This document shows, piece by piece, positions 3,679 through 42,076 of a stretch of DNA of 61,770 bases (positions within the stretch are counted from its first letter, which is position 1; each line of letters opens with the position of its first letter). The notes under the pieces were generated by a model that was given only the letters and a program-made list of their open reading frames with translations, did not search any database and was not told where the DNA came from. The stretch is from a virus (Duplodnaviria > Caudoviricetes): positions 1 through 61,770 of the IMG/VR virus record IMGVR_UViG_3300035438_000760. One strand, given 5' to 3'. A program made the position numbers and the translations under genes.

Positions 3679-4365
3679 GTGGATTTTGACCTGACTGAGT
3701 TAGAGAAGAAGATGTCGCCGTCTGAGGCGGGTCGTTACGCCGCTGAGATGCGATGGCGTACTCATTCTGGTATGGCTTTGCCCGCTGGTGCAAACACTGT
3801 TTTGTTGCCTGACCGTTTGAATCGTGCTACTGACAACATGTTGGCTAAGGGTGGCAGTGTTTCTCACTTGGGTTTGAACGAGAGCGATGCTGTTTTGCGT
3901 GGTGCGATGATGATGGTGGAGCGCACTTTTAGTGAGGCTCGTATGAATCAGCGGGATTACGAGTTGAATGTGCATGCTCAGAAGTCGTGGCAGGAGGCTC
4001 GTAAGGATCCTTCGGCGATGCTTCATGTGGTTCGTGTTGGTCGCAATATTGCGGCGGTTGCGGTTACGGTTCGTCCGAATGATGCGACGGTGGAGATTCG
4101 GCATTTGAGTTCTACTGGGGTGTTGAAGGGTGCTGGTTCGGCTTTGTTGGGGTCAATTATTAAGAAGGGTGTGAAGGGTGGGCGTACTACTTTTCGGGTT
4201 ACGCCGTCTGAGGAATCTAAGTCTTTTTGGGATGAGTATGGTTTTAGCGGTGCTGTTTATGACCAGTTGGGTAATCCTGATGGGTCGCAGGATTTGGTTG
4301 TGAAGCCTGAGTGGTTGCGTGTTGTAAAGGCTAATTTTGATTCTTCAACGGAAGGTACAGAGTGA
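3679..4365 (+). CDS. Tagged cargo protein with C-terminal GNAT acetyltransferase-like domain
   Basis: EKKMSPSEAGRYAAEMRW tag; KGAGSALL acetyl-CoA motif A and SFWDEYGF motif B. Confidence 0.65.
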   Translation: MDFDLTELEKKMSPSEAGRYAAEMRWRTHSGMALPAGANTVLLPDRLNRATDNMLAKGGSVSHLGLNESDAVLRGAMMMVERTFSEARMNQRDYELNVHAQKSWQEARKDPSAMLHVVRVGRNIAAVAVTVRPNDATVEIRHLSSTGVLKGAGSALLGSIIKKGVKGGRTTFRVTPSEESKSFWDEYGFSGAVYDQLGNPDGSQDLVVKPEWLRVVKANFDSSTEGTE

Positions 4366-5492
4366 ACAAGTCATTGGAAAATGTGTTGAAGGCTTTGGAG
4401 CAGGACGCTTTGGCGTTTTGTTCGGAGTCGGATTGGGCGATCGTTGTCGCTGAATGCGAGAGGGCTGGGAATGTTCGTCGTGTTTCTAAGTCGGCTCAGG
4501 TGATTTTGGAGAAGGCTATGTCTCGTTCTGAGGCTGGTCGGTTTGCGGCTGAACAGCGTTGGAAGAATCATGTGAAGGAGGGTGATGGTAGCGGAGGGAG
4601 AATTCCCAATCCGCCCGGGTCGTCGGTTCGTGGCACAAGATCTGCTTTTAAGACTCCAGAATCTAAGGCTAATGCTAAAAAAATGATGCGAGACGCATTG
4701 TTATACGGTGGGTATAACGGTATAGAAGTTGCTGAAATTTTGACTGGCAGAGGAAATAACATTGCCAAAAAACAAAGTCGCAGGTGGTTGAAGTTGTATG
4801 GCTTTACGGACGGTCAAATACGAGAGTTTGTTGGCAGAGACACCGTTGAAACAAGTGGCAGTGGAACTCCTAAAGAGAAATACTCGCCAGTGCAATACCA
4901 AGCGGTTCGGGATGCGATACCTCAAATCAGTGCGGACAATGCTAAGAAGTTGACTCAGTATCTTGCTGATAATGATCTTCTTGGTGGTACTGCTGGGATG
5001 ACTCCTCAGCAGATGCTTGATAAGTGGGTGCCTCATTTGGATCGTGCTTTGGGTGGTAGCGAGACTGCAACTCCTAAAACGGCACCAGTAAAAAGTGGTG
5101 GTGAACGGGGTTCGGGTTCGTTTGATGATGGAACACCTTTTCATGGTAAGTTTTCAAGCCCGACAAACAATGACGGCGAAGGCGACGGCACTTTAGGTAC
5201 CAGCCGTGTTAACCATCCTGTTTACAAAACACCGAAGTATAAGGCTGAAGTGAAAGCGGCGGCTCTGTACCAGTTGCATAACGAGATCGTAAAAATGCAT
5301 CGGCAGGCAGGCAAACAAATTCCAAATTCTGCCAAGCCTTACATGGATGCTCTAAATTCGTTGTCAAATGTCAACGAAATGTACGGCATGGACTCTGGCA
5401 AATCCATTGTTGCTTACACCATTAGCAATATTAAATTTTTTGGTGAGCAAGGCAAAGCGTTAAAAGCGGAGTTGTCCGCTCGGTTGAAATAA
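4362..5492 (+). CDS. Tagged multi-domain cargo protein, unknown function
   Basis: Shared ~50-aa leader plus EKAMSRSEAGRFAAEQRWKNH; several domains separated by low-complexity linkers. Confidence 0.7.
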   Translation: MNKSLENVLKALEQDALAFCSESDWAIVVAECERAGNVRRVSKSAQVILEKAMSRSEAGRFAAEQRWKNHVKEGDGSGGRIPNPPGSSVRGTRSAFKTPESKANAKKMMRDALLYGGYNGIEVAEILTGRGNNIAKKQSRRWLKLYGFTDGQIREFVGRDTVETSGSGTPKEKYSPVQYQAVRDAIPQISADNAKKLTQYLADNDLLGGTAGMTPQQMLDKWVPHLDRALGGSETATPKTAPVKSGGERGSGSFDDGTPFHGKFSSPTNNDGEGDGTLGTSRVNHPVYKTPKYKAEVKAAALYQLHNEIVKMHRQAGKQIPNSAKPYMDALNSLSNVNEMYGMDSGKSIVAYTISNIKFFGEQGKALKAELSARLK

Positions 5493-5520
5493 TCTCTCTC
5501 ACTATTTAAAGGAAACAGTC

Positions 5521-6462
5521 ATGCGACAAGGTTTGGAATCAGTTTTAAAAATGTTGGAGCCGTTTGCTCTCGGATTTTGTTCCGATAGTGAGTGGTCTGA
5601 TGTGGTTGCTGAGTGCGAATATGTTGGTGGTGTTTCTGGTGTGTCGGTTTCGGCTCAAAGGATTTTGGCTAAGGCGGAGTTTGGTTCTCGTTCGGAGGCT
5701 GGTCGTTATGCGGCATTACAGCGTTGGAAGACCCATATCCCTGTTGACGATGTAATCACCGCTTACCCTAATGCGAAACCTGCTGTGGCTGTTGGGGAAC
5801 CGTTCCCTCCTCCTCCTACGCCAGATACTGAACCTGATCCTAAGTATGGTGAGGAAAGCATTCGTCTGGCTAGAGAACTTCGTGCCAAATCGGTGCTTCT
5901 TGAACCTGAAGTTACAAACATGATTTTGGCGGTTGCTCAAAAGACTGGTGCCGAAACGCCTGACCTTAAACATCGTTTGAAGGCAACAGGTAGTCTTGCT
6001 CGCAAGATCCATAATGAGGGTATGGCTGAACATGACGGTGATTTTGTTAAGTCTGCTGAGGGTATCTCAGATGCGATTCGTTACACAATGGTGATTGATG
6101 ATGATAACTATTTGGGTGCGGCTCAGCAGATTATTAAGGATTTTGAGTCCAGTGGATACAAGATTCGTAACAAAAACTTTTGGCAGACGGGCGATCCTTT
6201 TGATGCGATGACTTTAAAGTTGTCTAAGGACGGGGTTACTACTGAGTTGCAGATGTTGACTCCTGCGGCGAAGAAAGCCAAGGAACTGAATCATCCGTTG
6301 TATGAGATTTATCGTGATCCTTCTACACCGATGCTCACTCGGATGAGTGCTTGGAAAAAAATGGTTGATGTAGCCAAGTTAACGCCTCGTCCGTTAGGCT
6401 ATTCCTTATTGTTAACACTTGGAACTTTGGTTCTTCAAAAACCTGATTGGGCGTTGATGTGA
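5521..6462 (+). CDS. Tagged cargo protein with RelA/SpoT-like nucleotidyltransferase domain
   Basis: AKAEFGSRSEAGRYAALQRW tag; RLK..SL.RK, DAIRYT, ELQ and H.LYE.YR motifs. Confidence 0.7.
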   Translation: MRQGLESVLKMLEPFALGFCSDSEWSDVVAECEYVGGVSGVSVSAQRILAKAEFGSRSEAGRYAALQRWKTHIPVDDVITAYPNAKPAVAVGEPFPPPPTPDTEPDPKYGEESIRLARELRAKSVLLEPEVTNMILAVAQKTGAETPDLKHRLKATGSLARKIHNEGMAEHDGDFVKSAEGISDAIRYTMVIDDDNYLGAAQQIIKDFESSGYKIRNKNFWQTGDPFDAMTLKLSKDGVTTELQMLTPAAKKAKELNHPLYEIYRDPSTPMLTRMSAWKKMVDVAKLTPRPLGYSLLLTLGTLVLQKPDWALM

Positions 6463-15567: not shown

Positions 15568-15757
15568 CAATTTTGTTGAGAGGGGTTTAAATGGAGACAG
15601 TTAAGACAGCAGTTGCCGAATTAAATGACCGACAAATTTTGGTCATGTTTTTTGAAGACGGAACTTTGCACATTGCTGAACGAGAGAATTCGTGGGACAC
15701 ATGGGGTCGCCCTGTGTACACGCAATTTGCAACAATGGGCGAAAGCACAAAACACTG

Positions 15758-26190: not shown

Positions 26191-26208
26191 GGAAGTCAGC
26201 GGGTTCAG

Positions 26209-26236: not shown

Positions 26237-26285
26237 GTTGCTTAAATACGGTTCAGCACTACTGGGGTATGGTGAGCGGATGGTT

Positions 26286-27332
26286 ATGCCTGCCTCCACA
26301 CAATTTATTTTGAAGCAACTGGAGCCGTTCGCTCAGTGTGAGCCTCATATCTGGGATTTGGTTGTGCAGGAAGTTGAGTCGCATGGACTCAACCAGATCA
26401 GTAAGTCATCCATGATTGAGTTGAAGGTGGCTAAGGCTGGTTGGGAGCGTATGGAGAAAGCAAGGTACGCATCTCGCAGTGAAGCGTCACGATTCGCCGC
26501 CGAACAGCGGTGGAAAGGGCATGCGAAGAAAGAACCGTCTTCAGGTATGCGGAAAGCGACAGTTGCCGAACGAAAGCAATTGGGTGTCCCTCCCGCGTGG
26601 ACTGATGTAGAAATTGCTGACAGTCCAAAGGGTGTTAACGGTTTATTGTTTAGAGGTATTGATGCGAAAGGTCGTGTGCAGTCCAAGTACACCGAAGAGC
26701 ATTCTGCTAAACGATCTAAATTGAAGTTTAAACGGATTTTGGAATTGGAAACTCATTTAGGAAAGTTAGATGCAACGCTTGAAAAGGGTGTGAAATCTGG
26801 AGATGAGCATGCCGTGTGTCTTTCAATTATTCGCCAAGGCGGTTGCAGACCCGGATCGGATAACGAAACTTTGGGTACGGTCAAGGCTTTTGGGGCTACA
26901 ACTTTGGAGGCTCGTCATGTGAAGGTGGCTGGCGATGTTGTGAAACTGGATTTTGTTGGCAAGTCGGGCAAGCAGAATCAGATTGAAATTAAGGATAAAA
27001 ACCTTGCTTCGGCGATGCGAACCTTGTTAAAAGGGAAGGGCAAGTCGGACAAAGTGTTTGCTTCGGTGGATGCTCCGTCTTTGCTTGAGTATCAGCGGAC
27101 AATTTTGCCTAAGAAGTTTTTGTTGAAAGATTTGCGGACTTCGTTGGGGACTAAAACGGCTTTGTTGGCGATCAAAAAAATGGCGGTTCCGAAAACTAAG
27201 ACTGCTTACAAGAAAGCGAAGTCTGAGATCGGCAAAATTGTTTCGGAAAAGTTGGGTAATACGCCTGCTATTGCGTTGCAAAGTTATATCAACCCGATGG
27301 TTTTTGGAGTTTGGGAGGGTGTCAGTGAGTGA
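26286..27332 (+). CDS. Type IB DNA topoisomerase carrying the leader and SRSEA..AA..RW tag
   Basis: VPPAWTDV, GIDAKGRVQ, RPGS, FVGKSG, KDLRT and LGNT...SYI catalytic motifs. Confidence 0.88.
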   Translation: MPASTQFILKQLEPFAQCEPHIWDLVVQEVESHGLNQISKSSMIELKVAKAGWERMEKARYASRSEASRFAAEQRWKGHAKKEPSSGMRKATVAERKQLGVPPAWTDVEIADSPKGVNGLLFRGIDAKGRVQSKYTEEHSAKRSKLKFKRILELETHLGKLDATLEKGVKSGDEHAVCLSIIRQGGCRPGSDNETLGTVKAFGATTLEARHVKVAGDVVKLDFVGKSGKQNQIEIKDKNLASAMRTLLKGKGKSDKVFASVDAPSLLEYQRTILPKKFLLKDLRTSLGTKTALLAIKKMAVPKTKTAYKKAKSEIGKIVSEKLGNTPAIALQSYINPMVFGVWEGVSE

Positions 27333-27498
27333 TATTTCTGAAGAGGAAAATGCGTGGGCGGTTGCTGAGATGCAAAAGTTGATGGTCAAGATCAGTCCCG
27401 AAATGGTTGATGTTGGCACTTGGGATGACTGCATGGATGACGAGCCAGAGTCAAGCGAATACATAGCAATGGAAAAGGAAGTGGATGATGAAGATTGA
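27325..27498 (+). CDS. Small highly acidic protein, candidate TopIB partner/inhibitor
   Basis: GTG start overlapping the TopIB stop; D/E-rich, 57 aa. Confidence 0.5.
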   Translation: MSDISEEENAWAVAEMQKLMVKISPEMVDVGTWDDCMDDEPESSEYIAMEKEVDDED

Positions 27499-28516
27499 CC
27501 AGTTGATTGGTTTAATTCGGGATAATGGTCGTTTGGATTCGGCGACTTTCAATATTGTTGAACGGGAGATTCGCGGGAATGCGATGTCTAAGTCAACGGT
27601 GCTGATCGTTCGGTCAATGTTTGACAAAATGGAGAAGGCTGATCGGTCTTCTGCTGGTCGTATAGCGGCTCAAGCCCGCTGGAAGGGGCATGTGAAGCAA
27701 CAGCCAGTTCCAGCGCAAGGTGGGGCATCTGGAGTGGCTCCTGCGGGTGTTAAGGGCTATCAACGCCCCGAAATTTTTAAAGTTAAGACGGTTGAGGCGG
27801 CGATCGCCATGATGAACGAGGGCAAGACCGTTGAATTAGAAAATGATGGTCAGGCTCACACTCTTTTGGTGGAGTTAGCCAGAATTGCTAACGATGCGAA
27901 GATAAAAGGTCGGGAAGCCCCGAACTATGACTTGTGCAAAGTGACTGTGCCGGGCACAAACCTTTTTTGTGGTGAGAACAAGGGGATCCCTCGTTCCAAG
28001 ATGCCTCAGTTAAGGAGTAAGCCTGTTGCTGGTTCTGAAGCGGACAAGTTGCCTCGTAACCAGTGGGGTGAGGTTGAAGGTGCGCCAATATTCCAGAAGC
28101 ATTTGGAGGATCTGGGTATTTCGGTGAAGAGCCAGACAATGCGAGCGTCGCAATTGAAGGCAACCCAACTTGATATGAAAGGCACTCAGATTGCCTTGAT
28201 GATGACTGACTCAAAGTTTGATCCCAAGGGTGAAGAGATTTGGGTGACTCGTGATGGCTACATTTTGGATGGGCATCATCGTTGGGCGGCGACGGTTGGT
28301 CGTGACTTGGCTGACGGAAAAATCGGTGATCTTGATTTGAAGGTCAAAGTTATTGATGCTCCGATTTCTGAGATTCTTCCGATGGCAAATTCGTGGACTC
28401 AAGAAATTGGTTTGAAGGCGATTGCTGGTCCTGCTACTGCTCCGAATGCTTCGGGTGCGATGGAGCCTGCTACGGATGTCAAAAAGAAATCTGGTGGTTG
28501 TGGTTGTGGTTGCTAA
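27485..28516 (+). CDS. Tagged cargo protein with ParB/Srx-like domain
   Basis: EKADRSSAGRIAAQARWKGH tag; LKATQ...YILDGHHRWAA; C-terminal CGCGC. Confidence 0.7.
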   Translation: MMKIDQLIGLIRDNGRLDSATFNIVEREIRGNAMSKSTVLIVRSMFDKMEKADRSSAGRIAAQARWKGHVKQQPVPAQGGASGVAPAGVKGYQRPEIFKVKTVEAAIAMMNEGKTVELENDGQAHTLLVELARIANDAKIKGREAPNYDLCKVTVPGTNLFCGENKGIPRSKMPQLRSKPVAGSEADKLPRNQWGEVEGAPIFQKHLEDLGISVKSQTMRASQLKATQLDMKGTQIALMMTDSKFDPKGEEIWVTRDGYILDGHHRWAATVGRDLADGKIGDLDLKVKVIDAPISEILPMANSWTQEIGLKAIAGPATAPNASGAMEPATDVKKKSGGCGCGC

Positions 28517-28517: not shown

Positions 28518-28546
28518 TTGACACGGTAACTAAATAGTGGTATACT
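28518..28546 (+). promoter_or_regulatory. Near-consensus sigma-A promoter
   Basis: TTGACA-N17-TATACT with TGn extension. Confidence 0.8.
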
Positions 28547-31918: not shown

Positions 31919-31947
31919 TGGGGTGATGCTTCGGCTCACCCCATTTT
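31919..31947 (+). terminator. Hairpin, probable terminator before the head operon
   Basis: TGGGGTGA/TCACCCCA stem followed by TTTT. Confidence 0.55.
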
Positions 31948-31970
31948 GCTATCCTCGCCATGTGGCTGAC

Positions 31971-33401
31971 ATGCGTGAACTAGGAACATCAGGATTTCAA
32001 CATTCTGGCGGTTCTGTCACAGACGAATTTTTAGCGAATCTTCAAGGCATTCGTGGTATTCGTACATGGCGTGAAATGGCTGATAACGATCCTGTGGTCG
32101 GTGCGATGCTGTTTGCTGTTGAACGGCTAATCCTGAATCTGAAATGGAAAGTAGATCCATTTATTGAAGAAGGTAAGACCAAAGCATCTAAGAAAGATGA
32201 AAAGGTCGCCGAATTTGTTGAGCAATGCTTGTATGACATGGAAAATTCGTGGGACGGTACTGTCGCTGAGATCCTGTCGTTTTTGACTTACGGCTGGTCG
32301 TACTCCGAGATCGTTTACAAGAAGCGGGGCGGGATGGACACCAAAGACAAGTCCAAACGATCCAAATTTAATGACCAGAAAATTGGTTGGAGAAAGATTT
32401 CTAACCGAGCGCAAGAAACATTGTTCCAGTGGGATATTGACGAATCTGGCGATGTGAGAGCAATGCAACAATTAGATCCTTCTGCTGGTAAGGGTCTGGT
32501 GTCAATTCCCATTGAGAAGGCTCTGCACTTCCGTACAACCTCCGCTAGAAACAATCCTGAAGGGCGAAGCCTTTTACGCAATGCGTACCGCCCGTGGCGA
32601 TTTAAACGCACCATTGAAGAAATTGAAGCGATCGGCATTGAACGAGATCTGGCTGGTCTGCCAGTTGCTTATGTACCTCCGTCCATGCTTTCGTCCACCG
32701 CAACATCAGATGAGGTGTCTGCCCGCAATGCGATCCAAAGCATGGTTCGTGGAATCAAACGAAACCAAAACGAAGGCATCCTTTTCCCGCTCGCTTTTGA
32801 TGAAGGCGGACGGGAGATGTACAAACTGACTCTTCTGTCCAGTGGTGGCAACCGCCAGTTCAACACTGATGCCATTGTTGCCCGCTATGACCAGCGAATC
32901 ACAATGACAATTCTGGCTGACTTCATTTTGTTGGGTCACGAAAAAGTCGGTTCGTTTGCTTTGGGGTCGTCAAAGATTGACTTATTCTTGACTGCGATCG
33001 CCCAGATGACCGCCCAGATTTCTGATGTGTTCAACAAGGATGCTGTTCCGAGACTGTTGAAGTTAAACGGCATGGATCCTCAGCGCGCACCCGTGATGCG
33101 AGTAGAAGAGTTGCAGTCCACCGATCTAACTGTTCTTGGCGACTTCATCACCAAAATGGCTGGTGCTGGAGCGTTGCAAGTTGACTCTGGTCTGGATGAG
33201 TTTGTTCGTGATCTTGCTGGCTTGCCACCAAAGGTTGAAGAAGAAGGTGCTTTACAACAAGGTGCTCAGATGCAACCGAATGCGATGCCCCAACCTCCTG
33301 TAGCACCGCAGTCTGCTCCGCCCGCTGAAGCGCAATCCGCTGAAGCGCAACCTGCTCAAGCGTCTGGTAGTGGTTCGGTTGAAGACTACATTATTCAATA
33401 A
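31971..33401 (+). CDS. Portal protein (DUF935/Mu gp29-like)
   Basis: NNPEGRSLLRNAY, EAIGIERDLAGLP and GSFALG motifs; first gene of the head operon. Confidence 0.88.
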   Translation: MRELGTSGFQHSGGSVTDEFLANLQGIRGIRTWREMADNDPVVGAMLFAVERLILNLKWKVDPFIEEGKTKASKKDEKVAEFVEQCLYDMENSWDGTVAEILSFLTYGWSYSEIVYKKRGGMDTKDKSKRSKFNDQKIGWRKISNRAQETLFQWDIDESGDVRAMQQLDPSAGKGLVSIPIEKALHFRTTSARNNPEGRSLLRNAYRPWRFKRTIEEIEAIGIERDLAGLPVAYVPPSMLSSTATSDEVSARNAIQSMVRGIKRNQNEGILFPLAFDEGGREMYKLTLLSSGGNRQFNTDAIVARYDQRITMTILADFILLGHEKVGSFALGSSKIDLFLTAIAQMTAQISDVFNKDAVPRLLKLNGMDPQRAPVMRVEELQSTDLTVLGDFITKMAGAGALQVDSGLDEFVRDLAGLPPKVEEEGALQQGAQMQPNAMPQPPVAPQSAPPAEAQSAEAQPAQASGSGSVEDYIIQ

Positions 33402-33432
33402 AGCCTCATCTTTGACTCTAAACGAGATCGGG

Positions 33433-34269
33433 ATGGCTGATGCTGTCTCCCAAATTTCGTCAAGTTTGTCTAAGAGTCTGTTGGGCGTTATTGGTGGTTC
33501 TTCAGATGGCGCAACCGCTTTAGGTCGGCTGAGTTCGGTTGACATTCTGGATCAACTTCAAGAGTTAACGCCAGCGATTATCGGTCCGTTGATGAACGAA
33601 CTTGAATTGTCTGCTGTGGATGCGATCGCTTCCATCCCGCCACAGTTAAGTATCGGAGTCAGTTTCAATACCACTGACCCTCGCGCACTAGCGTGGGCGA
33701 CCCAGCGGGCTGGCGAGTTTGTTGTTCAAGTCAGTGACGAAGTTCGTACCCAAATCAGAGATCTGATCTCTCGTGGTTACCGTGACCAAATGACCGTAGA
33801 TGCCATTGCAAGAGAACTGCGAAACATTGTTGGTTTGCATTCTCGTTGGGCGACCGCCGTTGAAAACATGTACGCCAAAACTCTTAGCGGGCTTGTCAAT
33901 TCGGGTGTGGCGTTAGGTATGGCTACTACGCAGGCGACCAGTCTTGCGGGGGCGTATCGGGACAAGTTGATTGCTTCACGGGCTAACACGATCGCCAGAA
34001 CCGAAGTCATCGGGGCTAATAACGCTGGACGCTATTTGGGGTGGCAACAGTTCATGCAACAGTCTGGTTATCCGCCGAACTTGATGCAGAAAGAATGGGT
34101 TGTTGGTCCTGATGGTTGGCAGGGTATCAATGTATGCGATCTGTGTCTTGAGTTAGATGGCACGACTGTTGGTGTGAATGATGAGTTTCCTAGTGGTCGG
34201 TTGATGCCTCCGTTGCATCCGAATTGTCGTTGTACTGCTTTGCTGATTTTTCCTGAGGATGGTTTGTGA
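33433..34269 (+). CDS. MuF / SPP1 gp7-like minor head protein (start uncertain)
   Basis: RANTIARTE, KEW, CDLC and PPLHPNCRC. Confidence 0.88.
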   Translation: MADAVSQISSSLSKSLLGVIGGSSDGATALGRLSSVDILDQLQELTPAIIGPLMNELELSAVDAIASIPPQLSIGVSFNTTDPRALAWATQRAGEFVVQVSDEVRTQIRDLISRGYRDQMTVDAIARELRNIVGLHSRWATAVENMYAKTLSGLVNSGVALGMATTQATSLAGAYRDKLIASRANTIARTEVIGANNAGRYLGWQQFMQQSGYPPNLMQKEWVVGPDGWQGINVCDLCLELDGTTVGVNDEFPSGRLMPPLHPNCRCTALLIFPEDGL

Positions 34270-35972
34270 TGCCGTACAAGATTGAGCAGAGGGCTGACAA
34301 GTTTGTTGTTGTTCGTGAGGACGACGGGAGAGTTGTTGGTACGCATTCGTCTAGGGCTAAAGCAACGGCTCAGTTGAAAGCGTTGTATATCCATGTTAAG
34401 GATGCCATTGAGAAAGCGAAGTTCGGTTCACGAAGCGAAGCAGGCAAGTACGCCGCCCACATTCGGTGGATGCGAGAGCGGGGTATGGAACCGTTAACGC
34501 CTGATGCTTGGCGTAGCCAGAACGCTCAACCAGTGGAGCCGACAAGAAGTTCGTATGAGAGTTCGTTGGATGCGATCACAAGTTTTGCTAGTAACGAGTT
34601 TCAAAGCAGATTGCGTGATGCTGGTAATGAAATAAATGCGCGGTCGTATGACAACGGAAGACCTGTTTCAGTGAAGGACTATTTGCTTATCAATGAAATG
34701 TCCAAAGTTGCAGTCCGTGATCCTAATGATCCTCAAAACACATTGGTTATTTGTTCTCCTCCTTTGATGGCAGTTGAACGAGAAGTCAATGAACTAGGCG
34801 GATTAGTACATGATGCGATATTAGAAAAGATGAAGCAAGAAGGGTTCTTGTTGCCAAACGGCGAATTTGATGAGACTCAACAAAAAGAGTTACGCAAAGT
34901 TAGAGAAGAATCAGAGTCTGTTGTTCAAAGCATTGCGGACAAGGGCAAGGAACTTGGACTGCAAATGTATACCTCCGAAACAAGGGGTGTTCAAACTTCA
35001 AAAATGAAAGTCATGTGGCGTGGGGCTGATGATATTGATGCTTCAAAAATGCCTCCAGAACTTCGTGCGCTTCACGAAAGTTGGCGCGACGCAGAAAAAG
35101 AATTGGATGGTGTGCCGTGGAGTTTACGAGATGCGAACACCGTTTTGAGAGATCGGGTAGAGAAAGCGGAAAAAGATTTTACCGAACTTGCGCTTAGTGA
35201 ATTTGAAACTTGGTTTGATGCTAACCACAATCCGTCTGGCGGTAGTCATGTCAGTCGGTTGACTGAACTTAAAAAAATTGCGGCGGACGCTAGTAGGGCT
35301 AGTTATAATGCACCTACTTATATTGATCGTTACCGTCACACTTTCGCTGAGGTTTTGAAAGATCTTGGTGTTTCTGGTCAGTCTCAAATTGGGACATCCG
35401 ATCAACTCAGAATTTCAAGCGGGACAGCATCCAAAGAACTTAAAGATAAATTTGTGAAACAAATTCACACATATTTTCCTGCTTCAACAATTCAAACTTT
35501 TAAAAATAAATATCCGCAAGGTTTGAAATTGACTAAATCAAATTCTGGTGGTCATTGGGTTGACTCTCAAGTAAAAATTCAATCCGATTTAACTCTTGAA
35601 ACAAATCTCCATGAATTTATGCATGCTGTAACCTATGCAGATCCGAGGGCTAACTTTGTTGAACGAGCGTTTTACATGCGACGACGAACTGATGGTGGTC
35701 GTGGCAATCAGCCGATTCAAGAAAGAGTTAAAAACGGGTGGGAGAAACCTAAAAAGACTTATGACGGCGGTAGAGGTAAACGGAGCGACTCAGAGTACAT
35801 TCGTGACGAGTTCCATTCGGAATATACGGGCAGGTACTACGACTCTGGGCATACCGAAACGATGACAACTGGTCTTGATCGTATTGCTGGGCGAGGTTCT
35901 AGTATTGAGGATCAAGATCACACAAACACTGTTATAGGTTTGCTTGTAGCGATTGGGTTGGGTTTCAAATGA
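34269..35972 (+). CDS. Tagged head-associated protein with C-terminal HExxH domain
   Basis: MPY...GTH...A.AQL.AL N-terminal module; EKAKFGSRSEAGKYAAHIRW tag; HEFMH. Confidence 0.75.
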   Translation: MPYKIEQRADKFVVVREDDGRVVGTHSSRAKATAQLKALYIHVKDAIEKAKFGSRSEAGKYAAHIRWMRERGMEPLTPDAWRSQNAQPVEPTRSSYESSLDAITSFASNEFQSRLRDAGNEINARSYDNGRPVSVKDYLLINEMSKVAVRDPNDPQNTLVICSPPLMAVEREVNELGGLVHDAILEKMKQEGFLLPNGEFDETQQKELRKVREESESVVQSIADKGKELGLQMYTSETRGVQTSKMKVMWRGADDIDASKMPPELRALHESWRDAEKELDGVPWSLRDANTVLRDRVEKAEKDFTELALSEFETWFDANHNPSGGSHVSRLTELKKIAADASRASYNAPTYIDRYRHTFAEVLKDLGVSGQSQIGTSDQLRISSGTASKELKDKFVKQIHTYFPASTIQTFKNKYPQGLKLTKSNSGGHWVDSQVKIQSDLTLETNLHEFMHAVTYADPRANFVERAFYMRRRTDGGRGNQPIQERVKNGWEKPKKTYDGGRGKRSDSEYIRDEFHSEYTGRYYDSGHTETMTTGLDRIAGRGSSIEDQDHTNTVIGLLVAIGLGFK

Positions 35973-38350
35973 TTAGGTTCGGGTATGTTCAGAGCGGTGT
36001 TCAGCGTTTCGCTGAGTGGACTGAAGAGTTTGGGCTTGTATGCGAAGACGATTTGCTTGATGCCGTCAATCTTTTGATTGGGGCTAAGGCTCCTGTTCGG
36101 TGTTCGTGGGTCGGGTATTTGATGGAAGCGTCGCTTGATACGGCTGTGCAGGCGTGGGGGACTATCAATAAGGCATTAAAGTGGTGTAATGGTGTTGAGT
36201 TGGTTCGTTGTACGCCACCATTGATTGAGTATGACGAGTTCTCGGATCCTGAAGAGGATCTGGTTGAGAAGGCTATGTCTCGTAGCGAAGCAGGCAGAAT
36301 AGCCGCAGAGGCAAGATGGAAGAACCATGTCAAAGCGTCTGTAGCAAATTCAATTATTGATCGTGTTAAGGCGTATGGCGGTTTGTCGGTCAAAATGTTG
36401 ACTGGTGAAGAGCCAACTTCTGGCTACATGGTTGCTCAAAGAGGTCACAATCGTGAAGTGCCAAGTGCCGACTTTTTTGATCCCGCTAAAGGGCAGGCGA
36501 TTCTCAAGAAGTATTTGATTGAAAAAAGGGATGTTTTCGGAAAGGAACAGTACCTAGGTTTATGGTACGATTCCGCAAACGATGAAGTTGTTTTAGATGT
36601 AGTTGACAACATACAGAAGAAGAGCGATGCGACCCGTGAGGGTGCGGAAAGAAATCAGCAGGCGATTTGGGATGTCAAAGGACAAAGAGAAATCAGCACA
36701 GGCGGTTCAGGAGACAGAGAGTCCGAACCAGCCATTGATGTTAGTAAAACCGCAGGTTCCGTTATCGGAGATGGACGACGACGAGATTGGGCTTTTCGCC
36801 AAAGATATTTGGGAGAAGTTTATGGAGACACGCAAGCCTTAATTGAGTTTGATAAAGCGAAGTTCAGTTCACGATCTGAAGCAGGTAAGTACGCCGCTCA
36901 TATTCGTTGGATGAATCAGAGGGGTATGACCCCGATGACGGTTGACCAGTGGAAATCACAAAACACTGGTGGTTCTGAGCGCATGCGAAAGATCCAAGAG
37001 TTGCAGATGGATGTGTCAGAGCGACTGAGAAAGTTCAATATTCTTTTGGGTGAGTCGCATGTTTTCCAAGATGGTATTTGGAACAGTTACGCAGAAAGCA
37101 AAATAAGTCAGGGTACAAATAAAGTTTTGTTGGTTCAGCCTGAAGACTGGGAAAAAACTGAGATTCCTTCAAAGGGCACCCCTGCTCAGTTGTGGGCTGT
37201 AGAGGTTCCAACAAGCATTAACGATTTTGATTACAAGGTTGCTGTTCCTAATGCTGAAGTCATGCGATTGATGGAAGATGTCAAAACTTTAGGTGGGTTA
37301 ATAGAAGATGAGGCTTTGGCACGGGCAAACGCAAGTTCGTCAGAGGTAATAGATCCTGTTGTGTCAACTATGGAGTTCAAAAGAAAAATAACTGGTCTTC
37401 AGCAAGAGATTAAAAATAATGAATGGCTCATGCATTACGGTATGAAAAGTTTAGTGAATTTCCTTGGGGATCCCGACAACGAGAAAACTAAATTTGAAGA
37501 ATGGGTTGATTCTGGTCTGCCTTCAAAAATAAGTGCTTCACAAAACGCAGTGAGCGAATTTGGTGAATTTGGGGAAAAAACCGTTCAAGACATTATTGAT
37601 AAATACGATGTTCGTGATTTTGACAAGTTTGTAGATGTTATGAACAATGAAATATTGTCTTCTCAAACAGCGGTAAGCGAAGCAGGTTTTGACCAAAACT
37701 CGTTAGCAAAATATAGGCGTGAAGTGTTGCGTGAGATTCGTCCGCACAGTACGGATGAAGGCATGCACAATGAAATAATTACGGGCAACCCTAAAGATAG
37801 CGGTACTGCGCTTGAATCTCATGTTGCAAAAGCAATGCGATTGTTGCCTTCAGCGTGGGTTGAAAAATTGAAGAACTACACAAAACAACACAACGCTCAA
37901 GGGAAAATGAGTATTACACCTGCCGTTGAAGGCAGATCCGGCTACAGCGAACCACATCATTTCATTCAAACTTCAACCGATGCCCAGCCGATGACTCTTG
38001 TCCATGAGTTAATCCATGCTGTTGAAGCGTCTAATCCTGCCATGCGGGTGATGGTCAACTCTTTCCATATCAATAGACGATTCGGTAATTTCAGAGCGGA
38101 TGACGAAAAGTTTGGTAGCACTTTCAGCAAAAGGTTACTAGGCAAATATGAGGAAGAAAAAAATGGGTTTGTGGAAGACAGTTACGCCGATAAATATTCT
38201 GGTCGTGAATATCCGTCTTATGAGTTGACTGCTCGTGAGCAGTTAACAACGGGTACCGACATGTCGTTGTTTGTTAACAACATGCGAACGCATGGTTTGA
38301 TTGACTTGGATCAGTTGAATTTTACTTTAGGAATGTGGGCTTCAGCATGA
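35969..38350 (+). CDS. Polyvalent protein: leader domain, tag, SAM-lyase-like(?) module, tag, HExxH module
   Basis: Tags at 36266 and 36851; HELIH domain homologous to the C-terminus of 34269..35972. Confidence 0.75.
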   Translation: MIRFGYVQSGVQRFAEWTEEFGLVCEDDLLDAVNLLIGAKAPVRCSWVGYLMEASLDTAVQAWGTINKALKWCNGVELVRCTPPLIEYDEFSDPEEDLVEKAMSRSEAGRIAAEARWKNHVKASVANSIIDRVKAYGGLSVKMLTGEEPTSGYMVAQRGHNREVPSADFFDPAKGQAILKKYLIEKRDVFGKEQYLGLWYDSANDEVVLDVVDNIQKKSDATREGAERNQQAIWDVKGQREISTGGSGDRESEPAIDVSKTAGSVIGDGRRRDWAFRQRYLGEVYGDTQALIEFDKAKFSSRSEAGKYAAHIRWMNQRGMTPMTVDQWKSQNTGGSERMRKIQELQMDVSERLRKFNILLGESHVFQDGIWNSYAESKISQGTNKVLLVQPEDWEKTEIPSKGTPAQLWAVEVPTSINDFDYKVAVPNAEVMRLMEDVKTLGGLIEDEALARANASSSEVIDPVVSTMEFKRKITGLQQEIKNNEWLMHYGMKSLVNFLGDPDNEKTKFEEWVDSGLPSKISASQNAVSEFGEFGEKTVQDIIDKYDVRDFDKFVDVMNNEILSSQTAVSEAGFDQNSLAKYRREVLREIRPHSTDEGMHNEIITGNPKDSGTALESHVAKAMRLLPSAWVEKLKNYTKQHNAQGKMSITPAVEGRSGYSEPHHFIQTSTDAQPMTLVHELIHAVEASNPAMRVMVNSFHINRRFGNFRADDEKFGSTFSKRLLGKYEEEKNGFVEDSYADKYSGREYPSYELTAREQLTTGTDMSLFVNNMRTHGLIDLDQLNFTLGMWASA

Positions 38351-40743
38351 AACTTGTTTGGGTAACCGTTGACGGTGAAACAATTTTGTGGGATGAAGGT
38401 GTTTTGGATGCTTCGCCTGACTTTTTTGAAAATGTTGCGTTGTTGGTTGATGCGAAGGTTCGTGTTCGTTCTCCACGGTATTACTTTGCTGAGGATGTGG
38501 CTCGGATGGATTCTCCGTTTGGGGCTTTGTTGACTGTTGAGTTTTTGTTGGATTTGTTGAATGTGGGTTTGGTTGAGGCTCCGATGCTTTTTGGTGAAGC
38601 GGATCCTTTGTTGACTGATAATGATTCTTTGGTTGTTTCTGTTGAGAAGGCTATGTCTCGGAGTGAAGCGGGCAAGTATGCGGCGGAGCAACGCTGGAAG
38701 AACCATGCGAAGAAAGAAACAACAAAGCAAGAAACGCTTCTATCTCCTACTGATGACGCTGAGATTGCTAGGGCTACTGGTCGCCCGTTGAGTTGGGCGT
38801 TGCCCGCTACACGAGATCCTGAATTAAATGAAATTTTGGGTCGGCTGGTAGCAGATTTTTCTTCGTCGCCACCGAGGTATCACGAATATGATCGTGTTGT
38901 CCGTGATCCAGCCACAAAAGAGTTGCTCAAGTATTTGGAAAGCAAAGGCATTGTTGGGAAATCGGATTTTGAGGCGGGTAAAACCAATGCTGGGATTATG
39001 GCTGTTGGGTTGCTTCTGAATGGCTTGCAAGCAAACAGTTCTTCGGCGTGGTCAACTTCGGTTCCAAAAGGGTTTGCTCCGTATTTTAAAGCACGAATGA
39101 TTGCTGAGGAAGGTTCTCCAGTAATCAATGTTAATGCGTATGCGCTTAACCAAATCATTAGTAGTGGCAGGTACAAAACCCAGTTTGAAACTCAAGAGTC
39201 AAACGGTGCGTTGAACCCGTATATTCGTGCGGCTTTTGAGTCAGGTGCAATGGGTTTGCACCCAAACATGGATGCGACTAAGCGTCCCGTGTACGGGACA
39301 ATGCAATCGCATGATTCAATTGGCAATACTCACCCAATGAGCCAATACGGTACAATTTCGCTTCAGTTGAACGAAAGTGTTCGTGAGCGTTCAACGGTTT
39401 CGTATAACGATTCTTTGGGTATGTCTATAGAGACTGCACCTGCTGACAGTACGGGCAAAGAGTTGGATCGGATGTTTAATACTGGTTCAAAGGGTGGACA
39501 TCTTGATTATGTTGAGACTCAGATTCATGGTGGTGTTTCGTTTAGCGATGTGAAAGCAATATGGGTGAATGAGAAGTATGCGCCCGGTGATTTTGAAAAT
39601 GTGACCGCGATATTGGATAAGTATGGGTTGTCCAATATCCCTGTGATGCGTGTTGGTGTTGATGATTTCTACAAAGCGAAGTTTAGTTCACGGAGTGAGG
39701 CTGGCAAGTATGCGGCGCATATTCGTTGGATGAACCAGCGTGGTTTGACTCCGATGACGGCTGACCAGTGGACTGCTAGTCAGAGTGCTGATGCGACACC
39801 TGTTGTTACGGCTCCGACTCGTGTGACGGCTAGTGGTGTGGATTGGGATCAGCCTGTACCACAGTTCAAAACTGTTGATGAAGCGCAAGCGTGGATTGAT
39901 GCGAAGTGGGGTAAGCGTGATGGTGGTTTACCAGACAGAGAATTTAAGATTGCCCTCACTGAAGGCAAGCGCATGAGCGGTTATTTTTCGTATGGGTTTG
40001 CAAACATTGAGGCAACACAACATTGGATTGAAAAAATAGATCAGGTGTTTAAAGAATTTCCTGAAATAGCAAACGCAGTTAGTTTTGTTGCGTCTGCTGA
40101 ACCTCCGTATGGATATGAACGCGCTCTCGGTTGGGCGGGTCGTGCATCAGCGTCGTTATATTTTAACCGTGGTATTTGTTCCGATCTTAATCTTGTGGAC
40201 GCTACGATTAAAGAATGGAAAAAGACGGGTTATTGCGCTACAAATGACCCGACTGCTGTTTTGTGGCATGAATTTGGTCATCATTTAGGTTATGCGGCGG
40301 GTAACGCTAATTTGTATGGCAACCTGACAGAGGTACGCATGCCTAGAACTTCGCAACCTCTTGCCGACATTAACCAGAGAGATCAAAAAGCGTATGAGAA
40401 GGCTATTCGGGTATTGGTTAAGCCTTTGATAATTAAAAGTATTAACAACGACCGAAAAGTAAAAGGGTTGAAACCGTTGCACTTTAAAGGGTTGTCCGAG
40501 GCAATGTCGGGTAATAGCAGAACTAAAGACTCTGACGCTTTAACTTGGCGTGACGAAATCAAAAAGCAGTTAAGCACTTATTCGTTGAGTAACTATAACG
40601 AAATGATTGCCGAATCGTTTGCCCAATATGCACACGGAGTATTTACTGGTGCTGAAATATCACCGTTGGCTAGAGGAGTTGTTGAAGGTTTACGGGGCTA
40701 TATTGCAGGTAAGCCGTTAGTACCGTCAGGAGGATCGCAATGA
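38347..40743 (+). CDS. Polyvalent protein: leader domain, tag, DUF3626-like module, tag, HExxH module
   Basis: Tags at 38644 and 39670; RPVYG...YVETQIHGGV; HEFGH...YSLSNYNEMIAESF. Confidence 0.75.
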   Translation: MKLVWVTVDGETILWDEGVLDASPDFFENVALLVDAKVRVRSPRYYFAEDVARMDSPFGALLTVEFLLDLLNVGLVEAPMLFGEADPLLTDNDSLVVSVEKAMSRSEAGKYAAEQRWKNHAKKETTKQETLLSPTDDAEIARATGRPLSWALPATRDPELNEILGRLVADFSSSPPRYHEYDRVVRDPATKELLKYLESKGIVGKSDFEAGKTNAGIMAVGLLLNGLQANSSSAWSTSVPKGFAPYFKARMIAEEGSPVINVNAYALNQIISSGRYKTQFETQESNGALNPYIRAAFESGAMGLHPNMDATKRPVYGTMQSHDSIGNTHPMSQYGTISLQLNESVRERSTVSYNDSLGMSIETAPADSTGKELDRMFNTGSKGGHLDYVETQIHGGVSFSDVKAIWVNEKYAPGDFENVTAILDKYGLSNIPVMRVGVDDFYKAKFSSRSEAGKYAAHIRWMNQRGLTPMTADQWTASQSADATPVVTAPTRVTASGVDWDQPVPQFKTVDEAQAWIDAKWGKRDGGLPDREFKIALTEGKRMSGYFSYGFANIEATQHWIEKIDQVFKEFPEIANAVSFVASAEPPYGYERALGWAGRASASLYFNRGICSDLNLVDATIKEWKKTGYCATNDPTAVLWHEFGHHLGYAAGNANLYGNLTEVRMPRTSQPLADINQRDQKAYEKAIRVLVKPLIIKSINNDRKVKGLKPLHFKGLSEAMSGNSRTKDSDALTWRDEIKKQLSTYSLSNYNEMIAESFAQYAHGVFTGAEISPLARGVVEGLRGYIAGKPLVPSGGSQ

Positions 40744-40976
40744 CAATGGGAATATCAATGTGTTGGGCGTGTAAGCACTCAAGAGGTAACGCAACTGAAA
40801 TAGATGAAATATTGACAGGGACATGCGATGCGTTTCCTGATGGTATCCCTCTTGAAATTTATGCAGGCGGGTTTGACCATCGCCAAAAATTTGCTGGTGA
40901 TAACGGTGTTAGGTTTGAACCAGTGACCGAAGAAGAAGGTTCTTTGGCTGTGAGCATGGTTGAGGACAATTTATGA
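40740..40976 (+). CDS. Small Cys/His protein, candidate partner/immunity of the upstream HExxH domain
   Basis: CWAC...CDAFPDGIP...FDHR...GDNGVRFEP; ATGA coupling. Confidence 0.65.
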   Translation: MTMGISMCWACKHSRGNATEIDEILTGTCDAFPDGIPLEIYAGGFDHRQKFAGDNGVRFEPVTEEEGSLAVSMVEDNL

Positions 40977-41155
40977 TTTTGATTGCAATGGTGGACGATG
41001 CGAAGGTGTTTGACATTGAAGACGATGACCCGATGTGGGGTACTCGTGTCATTCTGGAGCGTGGAGGCGTTGAAAGCGCACCGCTTTTGTTGGAAAATGT
41101 GGTTACCAAAATGTCTATGAGCAACTGGCGATGGGTCAACCCCCCTACTAAATAG
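40973..41155 (+). CDS. Small hypothetical protein (candidate partner/immunity)
   Basis: ATGA-coupled 60-aa ORF. Confidence 0.5.
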   Translation: MILIAMVDDAKVFDIEDDDPMWGTRVILERGGVESAPLLLENVVTKMSMSNWRWVNPPTK

Positions 41156-41185
41156 TGACTACTGGGTTTACTGTAAGGTTCTGGC

Positions 41186-42076
41186 ATGGATACAACCGAA
41201 ATTGACCAGTGGATAAACGGCGATCTTTCTTGGGAAGATCTTTCGGAGAGCGCACAAACGGCTATTGACGGTGAAGTTGACGATGCGAAGCCTGTTGCCA
41301 GTATGGAGTTAGTCCACAAGTCGGTTGCTGAGAAGCGGTTTACTTTAGGTCCGTGGTATATCCCGAACCGTTTGGATGCTCATAATGAGTGGACAGACTC
41401 TGATGAGTTGCAGGCTGGCTTGTGGGATTATGTCCGCAAGGGTGATCGTGGTATCCGTTTACAGCACAATCGTGACATTGTGGCTGGAGAATGGGTTGAG
41501 GCAATGCAACTTCCTGTTCCTGTCCAGATGCAGAAAGCGGCAAACGGAGAAACTGTTGAATACCCTGAAGGAACCGTTTTTCTTGGTGTTGTGTGGAAAC
41601 AGTGGGCGTGGGATCTCGTGAAGAACGGCAAAATCAAAGGTTTTTCTATTGGTGGTTCGTCGGCTCGGTTGCCAATTGAGCCTGTCAATAAGGGAATCAA
41701 GGTTTCTCCGACTTTCATTCCTGCTTTGATCCGTGTCTTGGGTAAGAGTTATGCGGTTCGCCCAGATGAGGGCGGTGTCCGTGTTTCTTCAGGTTTGGAC
41801 TTTGTTGTTTTTGATCCGTTCCAAGTGGATTTGGTTACTAAGTCGGTTTCGGATGGCTTTGTTGCTGATGCGAATCAGGTGTTGGCGTTTTCGCAGGCTA
41901 TTTTGACTGGCGGGATAGATCATGGTTTGTGGGTCAATACTGGTGATTCATGGTCGTTTGTGAAAGCGAAGTTTGGGTCACGGGTTGAGGCTGGTAAGTA
42001 TGCGGAGCATGTTCGTCGGGCTGTCGCTTCGGGGGAGACTCCTTTGGGTGTGGTTGAGTTTTCCGAAAATCTGTAA
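41186..42076 (+). CDS. Prohead protease, XkdF-like serine peptidase, with a tag near the C-terminus
   Basis: Y.P...DAHNEW, LQH, GTVF and GFSIGG motifs; VKAKFGSRVEAGKYAEHVRR. Confidence 0.85.
   Translation: MDTTEIDQWINGDLSWEDLSESAQTAIDGEVDDAKPVASMELVHKSVAEKRFTLGPWYIPNRLDAHNEWTDSDELQAGLWDYVRKGDRGIRLQHNRDIVAGEWVEAMQLPVPVQMQKAANGETVEYPEGTVFLGVVWKQWAWDLVKNGKIKGFSIGGSSARLPIEPVNKGIKVSPTFIPALIRVLGKSYAVRPDEGGVRVSSGLDFVVFDPFQVDLVTKSVSDGFVADANQVLAFSQAILTGGIDHGLWVNTGDSWSFVKAKFGSRVEAGKYAEHVRRAVASGETPLGVVEFSENL

Follow-up and report, generated by a model that had tools for sequence, protein, structure and literature searches.

A repeated peptide tag in front of exchangeable cargo modules in uncultured tailed phages: a candidate capsid leader linked to the prohead protease

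Eleven copies of one peptide

The subject of this report is a short peptide, here called the tag, that occurs 11 times in nine open reading frames (ORFs) of the tailed-phage record IMGVR_UViG_3300035438_000760 (Caudoviricetes), and that may be a leader for enzymes carried in the phage head. The whole contig of 61,770 bp was analysed and is referred to as the window; nearly all of its long ORFs lie on the + strand, and gene starts were taken from the ORFs. An earlier note, made from the sequence alone, had listed 11 tagged modules in nine ORFs together with their positions, and translation of these nine ORFs, all on the + strand, gives the same count at the same places. In addition, a 30-position hidden Markov model (HMM) built from the window's own tag copies was run against the six-frame translation of the window: all 11 copies score 48-63 bits, and every other match in the window is below 5 bits.

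Two subtypes can be distinguished. Type A reads E-K-A-M-S-R-S-E-A-G-R-x-A-A-E-x-R-W-K-N-H-x-K, and the longer type B reads K-A-K-F-[GS]-S-R-S-E-A-G-K-Y-A-A-H-I-R-W-M-x-x-R-G-x-x-P-x-T-x-D-x-W. Type B stands in front of each module with an HExxH motif, and a decayed type B is found at the C-terminus of the protease ORF. The core begins with the S or D of S/D-R-S-E-A-G, at 3715, 4521, 5686, 26472, 27641, 34428, 36278, 36869, 38656, 39688 and 41978, while the K-A pair lies 6-18 nt upstream of this first residue.

The tagged ORFs are found in three loci. At the first (3679-6462), tag 1 (3703..3771, type A, 53.6 bits) follows a short leader of 8 residues in ORF 3679-4365, tag 2 (4509..4577, type A, 58.0 bits) lies in ORF 4362-5492 behind a leader of the type called N1 below (4362-4508) and precedes a cargo without assignment, and tag 3 (5668..5742, 59.1 bits) lies in ORF 5521-6462, also behind an N1 leader (5521-5667). 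The second locus (26172-28516) holds tag 4 (26454..26528, 48.2 bits) in ORF 26172-27332, with a TopIB cargo, and tag 5 (27632..27697, 51.1 bits), a D-R-S-S-A-G variant, in ORF 27485-28516. At the third, tag 6 (34410..34511, extended type B, 56.3 bits) stands in ORF 34266-35972 between a 45-residue leader, N3, and the cargo Z1. The two ORFs that follow have two tags each. ORF 35969-38350 consists of a leader of about 100 residues (N2), tag 7 (36266..36334, type A, 51.2 bits), a cargo of about 170 aa, tag 8 (36851..36952, type B, 63.0 bits) and the zincin Z2. ORF 38335-40743 consists of an N2-type leader, tag 9 (38644..38712, type A, 53.5 bits), a DUF3626 cargo, tag 10 (39670..39771, type B, 61.6 bits) and the cargo Z3.

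The last copy, tag 11 (41960..42034, 48.5 bits), is a relic at the C-terminus of the protease ORF, 20 residues from its end. It had been described as degenerate in the earlier note, and this holds: the decay lies in the helix half, where three residues otherwise conserved to at least 90% are replaced (S to V, A to E, W to R), and the upstream half is intact.

The copies differ in their codons, again as the earlier note had it. Over the 14-codon core two copies are on average 62% identical in nucleotides and 72% in amino acids, serine is written both as TCN and as AGY, and the same codon is used for only 40% of the identical residues between copies. This divergence indicates that selection acts on the peptide and not on the DNA. 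The idea of a signal at the peptide level, common to unrelated cargo, is thus supported.

Distribution of the tag family

Tags of the window and of IMG/VR loci were aligned (45 sequences, 40 columns), and two protein searches were run with this alignment as the query. An exhaustive HMMER search of 1.84 billion representatives returns 404 at E<=1e-3, 165 at E<=1e-10 and 16 at E<=1e-30, and a word-index search of 5.8 billion clusters returns 409 at E<=0.01 among the 8,000 candidates scored. A single protein has up to five tags, as in P0001 with 1,769 aa. In IMG/VR, two pattern scans picked up 70 contigs with 81 loci between them, and a locus holds 1-13 tags. Across the family the consensus reads K-A-S-F-G-G-[DS]-R-S-[EA]-A-G-R-Y-A-A-x-x-R-W-[KQ]-[GN]-[HQ]-x-K. 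Six positions of it were fixed by the anchoring regular expression; A7, A8, R11 and W12 were not, yet they are invariant.

All tag-bearing relatives are metagenomic contigs. Two tag patterns gave 18 and 83 pattern matches in 185,579 prokaryotic species genomes, none of which was confirmed as a relative. Neither of two tag variants finds a match by tblastn (E<=1 and E<=10) in 50,697 cultured-phage records, and a megablast of 31-45 kb of the window against phages is empty as well. Judged by capsid, protease and scaffold, Arthrobacter phages and one Microbacterium phage are the nearest relatives in culture; the HMM finds no tag in the parts of them that were examined. The family appears restricted to viral contigs, as none was found in the prokaryote genomes or cultured phage records scanned.

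Further, the tag was not recognised as a described family in the earlier note, and we come to the same view. No Pfam, NCBIfam or PHROG model covers it in the nine window proteins, and in 36 segments of N1 leader plus tag no curated model does so at E<=10, save NDUS4, which stays below threshold. Two profile searches against the sequences of the PDB gave 0 matches each. The motif strings GRYAA, RSEAG, DRSAAG and AGRYA lead only to unrelated papers in the literature, and no published description of the tag was found, although the supplements of PMC5512222 and PMC5576092, outside this search, might name it. The HMM search that the earlier note had proposed brings out a distinct family, with no generic annotated motif covering it. 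By its sequence the tag is a real family and a member of none described.

Two candidate relationships were considered. NDUS4 gives repeated weak matches at positions ~32-82, all below the gathering score, the best being 30.5 bits against a cut-off of 31.9 (P0006, residues 20-57; also P0029, residues 29-75); these were treated as chance and are probably a chance likeness of a strand-helix unit. The S-R-S-E helix cap resembles what we take to be the turn of ribbon-helix-helix proteins of the Arc/MetJ/CopG kind, G-x-S/T/N-R-S-E, and P0027 and P0029 carry a JGI label of Arc/MetJ-type. Profiles do not support this, with no Pfam ribbon-helix-helix match at E<=10 and no match to PDB sequences, and the AF2 model has no strand, where a ribbon-helix-helix domain has a beta-strand and two helices.

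Polarity and leaders

The position of the tag was studied in 234 fetched proteins with 455 tags. The first tag has a median position of 51 and lies within the first 30 residues in 56 proteins. From the last tag to the C-terminus the median is 314 aa, and this distance is below 60 aa in three proteins only, two of which are fragments of 63 and 70 aa. Tags follow each other at 139-460 aa (5th-95th percentile). Each tag is, from these positions, the N-terminal leader of a domain-sized module.

Each cargo module has one tag, and it is reached in three ways: in a separate ORF behind a short, N1, N2 or N3 leader, within a polyprotein, or fused behind the prohead protease. N1 is a conserved leader of about 45 residues in stand-alone tagged ORFs, M-x-x-A-D-x-x-L-x-x-L-R...E-V-E-K-A-G-G-V-R, with 89 matches in fetched proteins and loci after three rounds of profile search. 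Besides the two copies of the first locus, the window has one at ~26280-26453 and a weak one at 27485-27631; others are found at L015:8824-9108 and in many other loci. The N1-like leader begins near 26280, so the true start of ORF 26172-27332 is probably there. No curated family or fold matches N1. In an AF2 model of N1 plus tag (mean pLDDT 64.7) three helices (pLDDT 72-84) are followed by a break at the F-G hinge; a fold search with this model gave a best Z of 4.6 and no meaningful match, and ESM Atlas scores of 0.80-0.83 are uninformative.

The tag itself is in two parts, as read from conservation. The first is a hydrophobic helix end followed by K-[A/S] and an F-G-G hinge, and the second is an almost invariant basic helix, R-S-E/A-A-G-R-Y-A-A-x-x-R-W-K-G-H-x-K. 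The K-A-S-F-G-G half is equally conserved in 59 N-terminal and 341 internal tags. Even in the N-terminal tags at least one residue precedes the K in all 59, and five or more do so in 55. Such conservation marks the upstream half as functional.

What the helix does is a separate matter. It might be an uncleaved docking or nucleic-acid-binding helix, which would tether intact polyvalent proteins to DNA, to portal/MuF or to the scaffold, so that they are enclosed and exit together with the DNA. It has about 18 positions with little or no variation, including four to six basic residues plus Tyr/Trp, which is more what a binding surface than what a cut site would need. At L027:14377-14661 and L053:8759-9043 N1 ends in K-A and then runs into other small basic segments instead of the tag helix, so hinge and helix are separable; this suggests that a basic segment is the functional unit, and by their sequence these segments may be alternative tags. 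As an aside, one of them resembles a K-rich segment of DUF6496 type, and DUF6496 is found in 1 of 90 representatives. Precedents exist too: T4 internal proteins are basic and abundant phiKZ head proteins are DNA-associated, as described in PMC9026906, and the virion RNA polymerase of N4 and some plasmid polyvalent proteins are transferred unprocessed according to PMC5512222. Still, a pure address has no need of K-A-S-F-G-G and a few residues upstream of it, which are kept even at the extreme N-terminus. Further, polyproteins of up to 1,769 aa with five tags would have to pass portal and tail intact, and the protease is always fused upstream of a tag. We regard an uncleaved helix as unlikely.

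Linkage to the prohead protease and the head genes

The third tagged locus lies within the head module, with all genes for which a strand is given here on the + strand. The portal gene (31923..33401; phrog_113, E 3e-85) is followed by a MuF-like minor head protein (33370..34269; phrog_3517, phrog_2468 and phrog_115), which is directly upstream of the three large tagged ORFs (34266-40743); ORF 34266-35972 is the first ORF after MuF. These ORFs stand between MuF and the protease, ORF 41186..42076. The earlier note had named an XkdF-type protease, and this ORF is indeed a member of Peptidase_S78_2 (PF14550, E 1.5e-9, 38.3 bits against a cut-off of 24) that also matches phrog_3017, head maturation protease; the Ser of a conserved G-F-S-I-G-G motif is its putative catalytic residue. 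It lies between the tagged ORFs and the genes for the scaffold and capsid, namely an acidic helical candidate scaffold (42552..43247; phrog_13547, net charge -25) and the major capsid protein (43679..44629; phrog_1005, E 4.6e-99). The latter is about 50% identical to the capsid proteins of the Arthrobacter and Microbacterium phages.

The protease is where the tag is most constant. All 29 fetched proteins that contain an XkdF domain have a tag beginning 1-10 aa behind it. Of the 34 protease ORF rows in the IMG/VR loci, 28 carry a tag further downstream, offset by 1-3, ~52, ~90 or ~130-144 residues; among the remaining six, two are truncated at contig ends, one is a partial match and three belong to a single relic. 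Every complete protease ORF has a tag after its XkdF domain, intact or relic. In L005-7 and L012 the tag behind the protease is intact and is followed by a zeta-toxin-like kinase. In the window and in L003 no cargo follows, the helix half is decayed and the upstream half is kept, and L010 and L014 have the same relic at the protease end, more decayed. Decay of the helix half only, in the absence of cargo, is thus seen in two lineages.

More generally, 76 of the 81 loci have homologues of portal, MuF, protease, scaffold, capsid or terminase within the flank, and in 80 of 81 all tags are on the strand of the head genes (L078 has one on the other strand as well). No tag is found within 54 MuF, 55 portal, 30 scaffold, 21 capsid and 11 terminase ORFs of the loci. 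The tie to the XkdF-type protease and the head genes that the earlier note had proposed is therefore supported by 29/29 proteins and 76/81 loci. Its link to MuF stands as far as neighbourhood goes, since MuF adjoins the tagged ORFs, but not as a fusion (0 of 54 MuF ORFs tagged). A complex prediction for protease residues 1-255 (16-row alignment) and a 40-residue tag (45 rows) gave 0.00 against a mark of 0.32; it was run without controls and yields no verdict.

The other two loci of the window are placed differently. The first is flanked by a tail-fibre-related gene and a phosphoesterase on one side and by replication genes on the other, and the second lies between the terminase (20804-22492) and an exonuclease. 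These positions could mean that the tag has no role in the capsid, the tagged proteins being cytoplasmic host-takeover or anti-defence enzymes and the tag a regulatory, oligomerisation or partner-binding motif: the loci at 3.7-6.5 kb and 26.2-28.5 kb are outside the portal-to-capsid block and by replication and nuclease genes. Against this, N1-tag ORFs are found between protease and scaffold in relatives, 76 of 81 loci are head-linked, the tag is fused to the protease itself, and the cargo of ORF 5521 matches domains found at the C-terminus of MuF-type head proteins. A purely cytoplasmic role is therefore, in our view, very unlikely.

Some further observations on the surroundings can be given here. 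Compared with the shuffle mean, promoter-like counts are low around both loci 1 and 2, and terminator-like counts are low at locus 1 and high at locus 2 (23 vs 14.3); neither count is informative on timing. A near-consensus sigma-70-like promoter (TTGACA, 17 nt spacer, TATACT, upstream TG, 11/12 matches) is found at 28518-28546, directly 3' of the stop of the tagged ORF 27485-28516 and 5' of the exonuclease gene. Inside the head module, a gamma-glutamyl-cyclotransferase-like gene (42131-42514; phrog_2520, E 5e-16) has the protease on one side and the scaffold on the other, and a small phrog_673 protein is encoded at 43266-43661, between the scaffold and major capsid genes. The non-structural genes include an amidoligase-like gene (11937-12839), a DNA methyltransferase (15692-16855) and a metallophosphoesterase (2027-3343).

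Features of the scaffold

The scaffold is an expected substrate of the prohead protease. The candidate scaffold protein, 231 aa long, contains the pattern [LIVMFA][LIVMFA]-K-[AS] five times, that is 2.16 per 100 aa compared with 0.168 over 84 window ORFs, among which it ranks first, and a composition-preserving shuffle gives P = 5e-5. This enrichment is suggestive only. The comparison across phages says more: an invariant site, hydrophobic-hydrophobic-K-S-x-P, is present in 17 of 17 distinct scaffolds of tagged phages, and it is preceded by a patch with 10-17 Asp/Glu per 30 residues. The five cultured relatives without the tag all lack this K-S, and in place of the patch they have a linker rich in Ala and Pro with 5-8 acidic residues. 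For the chemistry of such a cut there is a precedent, as the HK97 protease cuts at K103/S104, with Lys at P1 and Ser at P1' (PMC10275583).

The N-terminus of the scaffold (42552-42680) also has a conserved segment, E-T-S-G-V-D-H-P-A-H-x-x-E-G-W, which is present in the homologues of L001, L002 and L084-L086 and is common to the untagged Arthrobacter and Microbacterium phages. It recalls what we take to be an E-x-S-x-V-x-x-P-A strand at the end of HK97-type proteases and may, by this analogy, be a protease-docking element.

Cargo of the tagged modules

The earlier note had assigned a kind to most cargo modules, with varying outcome. TopIB in ORF 26172-27332 (PF01028, E 2.4e-17) and DUF3626 in ORF 38335-40743 (PF12294, E 3.3e-12) are confirmed by Pfam. 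The RelA/SpoT-like cargo of ORF 5521-6462 is supported by a small alarmone synthetase (8vx3, E 7.5e-11), and it also matches the C-terminal part of the MuF-type 'head morphogenesis' families phrog 7625 and 2841. For the proposed GNAT in ORF 3679-4365 there is an ESM Atlas lead of 0.92-0.95 but no Pfam match, so the cargo is GNAT/DUF2686-like as a lead only. The ParB/Srx-like call for ORF 27485-28516 comes from a motif seen by eye only, and no model matches beyond phrog_2859 (E 2.7e-17). Neither the PHROG profiles nor a PDB sequence search lends support to a SAM-lyase-like cargo. No PDB sequence matches the cargo of about 170 aa behind tag 7.

The three HExxH motifs are present, as HEFMH in Z1, HELIH in Z2 and HEFGH in Z3. 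Z1 and Z2 are paralogues (22.7% identical, E 3e-22), and the similarity of Z3 to them is confined to the tag region. Tag and Z1 were modelled together with AF2, giving a mean pLDDT of 75 and 77-80 for the tag helix. Residues 332-526 of Z1 resemble the catalytic domain of anthrax lethal factor (1yqy_A; Z 8.8, rmsd 3.8, 151 aa), where a Z of 8 is the guide for noise, and the next fold matches are Pro-Pro endopeptidases (9g0j, Z 7.6; 6fpc, Z 7.4). Foldseek with the Z1 model finds no match in the PDB at E<=0.001.

Among 90 representatives of the family, Pfam matches are ADPrib_exo_Tox (12), DUF3626 (12), Zeta_toxin (5), Peptidase_S78_2 (5), GNAT (5), ART (3) and DRAT (2). Single matches are ATLF, M90, M57, Mx zincins, HNH, Phage_Mu_F and ART-PolyVal; the ATLF match (E 4.1e-15) is to a relative, and no module of the window matches this model. 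Cataloguing the domains downstream of the tag, as the earlier note had suggested, yields the cargo kinds of packaged or injected effectors.

The frequency of zincins raises the possibility that the cutter is not the prohead protease but the lethal-factor- or Pro-Pro-endopeptidase-like zincin of the tagged proteins, which would process itself before packaging, in the head or after injection. An HExxH motif is found in 85 of 234 tag proteins, where about 4.5 are expected by chance, and 22 of the 23 loci that span MuF to protease have a tagged HExxH ORF. The fold of the C-terminal domain of Z1 and the one ATLF match point in the same direction, and autoprocessing by MPTase domains has been proposed for polyvalent proteins (Iyer et al. 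2017, PMC5512222). However, the zincins are themselves cargo behind tags and are variable, Z3 being unrelated to Z1 and Z2 outside the tag, and one of the 23 loci has no tagged HExxH ORF at all. The fixed feature is the junction of protease and tag, and the scaffold, which one expects to be a substrate of the prohead protease, has the hydrophobic-K-[A/S] pattern too. Cutting by the zincins is in our judgement quite unlikely.

Cassette borders

Relatives were compared with the window by blastn, and the ends of similarity blocks were measured from the tag anchor. At nine block ends, corresponding to eight positions, similarity stops 28-187 nt after the anchor. They are at 4577 (L017 and L019), 34456 (L004), 39849 (L003) and, for L005, 36329, 37056, 38714, 39819 and 42067. 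In L004 a module is inserted exactly at the tag (34456). Two short matches to paralogous tag regions end at 4566 and 39776, within 90 nt after a tag, and the other block ends inside tagged loci are 39367, which is a contig end, and 4333, at which point the tag is intact in L019 and a relic in the window. The tag marks the left edge of swapped cargo cassettes.

The clearest case is L003, which is 97% identical to the window over 14.5 kb and has a different HExxH cargo exactly in 39849-40821. At the sequence level this looks like a recent cassette swap behind tag 10. At the end of ORF 3679-4365, the window has ...R-V-V-K-A-N-F-D... and a stop (4300-4365), while L019 has an intact tag there (L019:10646) and runs on from it into a fused second module, as an ORF of 542 aa; the window therefore holds a second relic junction.

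Could the tag be nothing but a border for recombination, used for in-frame exchange of cassettes and with no biochemical role? The nine block ends and the insertion exactly at the tag would fit. Copies with 62% nucleotide identity and 40% shared codons are, on the other hand, a poor substrate for homologous recombination, and invariant residues across 404 representatives that are less than 50% identical demand a function at the level of the protein. Because of the codon divergence between copies we reject a border-only role, which we consider extremely unlikely.

A proposed two-part leader for capsid-carried enzymes

We favour the reading that the tag is a two-part leader in front of cargo, for the loading and cutting of changeable enzymes carried in the capsid of uncultured tailed phages of about 60 kb, and we put its probability at roughly 0.5. 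It is built on the motif and its polarity, on the linkage to the protease and the head genes, on the kinds of cargo, on the borders of the cassettes and on the features of the scaffold, and it is modelled on the capsid targeting sequence (CTS) of T4 with its cargo Alt and on the propeptides of SPN3US.

The proposed course of events is as follows. Late in infection the basic helix would dock a module on the poly-acidic patch of the scaffold, and the module would be enclosed when the shell assembles. The XkdF-type protease would then cut the scaffold at hydrophobic-hydrophobic-K-S and the tags at or near K-A/S, which would free the modules from their leaders, from each other and from the protease. 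Once free, the enzymes would stay inside the head and pass into the host together with the DNA. In the course of evolution, cassettes of cargo would be exchanged directly downstream of the tag. It should be noted that docking, cleavage, the scissile bond, packaging and ejection are all plausible steps that we infer by analogy.

A more specific version is that the tag is a portable zip code for the capsid, in which the helix binds the patch of the scaffold and suffices for loading, while XkdF cuts hydrophobic-K|A/S and so splits polyproteins into free enzymes that are injected. This stronger claim we hold only tentatively, at somewhat less than even odds. If it is true, the tag by itself would reveal all the proteins that a whole clade of uncultured phages injects, and it would be a ready handle for loading foreign proteins into capsids other than that of T4.

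A number of points weigh against a leader that is loaded and cut. None of the 50,697 cultured phage records carries the tag by tblastn. The zincins co-occur almost as universally as the protease, which makes the cutter ambiguous. The 25 conserved positions go far beyond what a protease site needs, and a cut at K-A would leave the address on the cargo, whereas T4 removes its address. Of the window's three tagged loci only the third lies in the head module, and AF2 gives the tag helix of an N1-led protein a pLDDT of no more than ~56. As for the scaffold, the pattern [LIVMFA][LIVMFA]K[AS] was picked after the scaffold had been viewed, so its P value is optimistic, and tagged and untagged scaffolds form two clades, so that their difference counts as one evolutionary contrast only.

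Outside T4 and the jumbo phages it is difficult to tell from sequence which proteins are packaged. In the clade studied here every candidate is flagged by one short peptide, and the flagged proteins come from hundreds of families. A leader for loading and cutting would, if true, offer a rule at the sequence level by which packaged host-takeover and anti-defence enzymes could be found in metagenomes. It would likewise define a substrate motif for the XkdF proteases, an uncharacterised family, and provide a compact tag for bringing cargo into capsids. Cassette exchange in the style of polymorphic toxins is also seen to operate inside a phage head module. What this analysis adds to the earlier note is the size of the family and its restriction to viral contigs, its N-terminal polarity, the N1 leader, the breakpoints placed by the tag and the K-S site and acidic patch of the scaffold.

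Comparison with known systems

The nearest functional parallel is found in T4, where the CTS is a short N-terminal leader on unrelated internal proteins, including the ADP-ribosyltransferase (ART) Alt; it sends them into the scaffold core and is removed by the prohead protease (PMC9026906). In T4 and in giant phages such as SPN3US the protease also loses a C-terminal piece, and scaffold proteins carry multiple sites (PMC9026906, PMC10052503). Like the CTS and the propeptides of phiKZ and SPN3US, the tag is an N-terminal leader before unrelated cargo of one phage. The sites themselves differ, as those described for T4 and phiKZ end in Glu (L/I-x-E, S/A-x-E), the candidate site here is hydrophobic-K-[A/S], and there is no sequence similarity. 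The CTS is described as 10 residues with loose determinants, compared with 25 conserved positions in the tag, which unlike the CTS is repeated in polyproteins and has its most conserved part downstream of the candidate cut. Further, the tagged phages differ from T4 and jumbo phages in having an XkdF-type protease and a genome of ~60 kb. The tag does not have the Glu-type cleavage motif and is, judged from its residues, an analogue and not a member of the T4-type capsid targeting sequences.

HK97 is similar in the cut, K103/S104 being of the same P1/P1' type as proposed for the tag (PMC10275583). It is unlike the tagged phages in that there are no cargo proteins and no repeated tag, and the scaffold is a domain of the capsid protein. 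The HK97 protease enters the prohead through a C-terminal segment. Peptidase_S78_2 is the second Pfam family with an S78 name, and we presume that it is related in fold to the HK97 prohead protease.

Polyvalent proteins are multi-domain effectors whose genes adjoin those for portal, MuF and terminase, and packaging and injection are predicted for them (PMC5512222). The overlap with the cargo described by Iyer et al. (2017) covers ARTs, metallopeptidases, ParB-like and GNAT domains and the idea of proteolytic release of modules. ORFs 35969-38350 and 38335-40743, with two cargo modules each after MuF, have the polyvalent architecture, and relatives have up to five modules. None of the Pfam LPD families of Iyer et al. 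matches the window proteins or the 90 representatives. The word 'linker' occurs 0 times in the text of that paper, and no description of a conserved peptide between modules was found in it; its supplementary lists are outside this statement.

MuF toxins have variable C-terminal toxins (nuclease, metallopeptidase, ART, RelA-like) and are hypothesised to be loaded into the head (PMC5576092). As in the MuF polymorphic toxins of Jamet et al. (2017), the same cargo kinds stand behind a constant head-associated N-terminal part. In contrast to them, the constant part is a peptide of 25-30 residues and MuF is a separate neighbouring gene: none of 54 MuF ORFs is tagged, and Phage_Mu_F is found in 1 of 90 representatives. 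In the text of that paper, the supplement aside, none of 'linker', 'junction', 'conserved motif' and 'cleav' occurs.

The cassette structure has its parallel in the pre-toxin junction motifs of polymorphic toxins. There, short peptides such as the VENN motif of CdiA stand at the left border of exchangeable cassettes. The tag is likewise found at the left border of cassettes, with breakpoints 28-187 nt after it, but it differs in that delivery would be through the phage head and not a secretion system, in being repeated in one protein and in its coupling to a prohead protease. By analogy, the tag plausibly combines the work of a leader for capsid targeting and processing with that of a pre-toxin junction motif.

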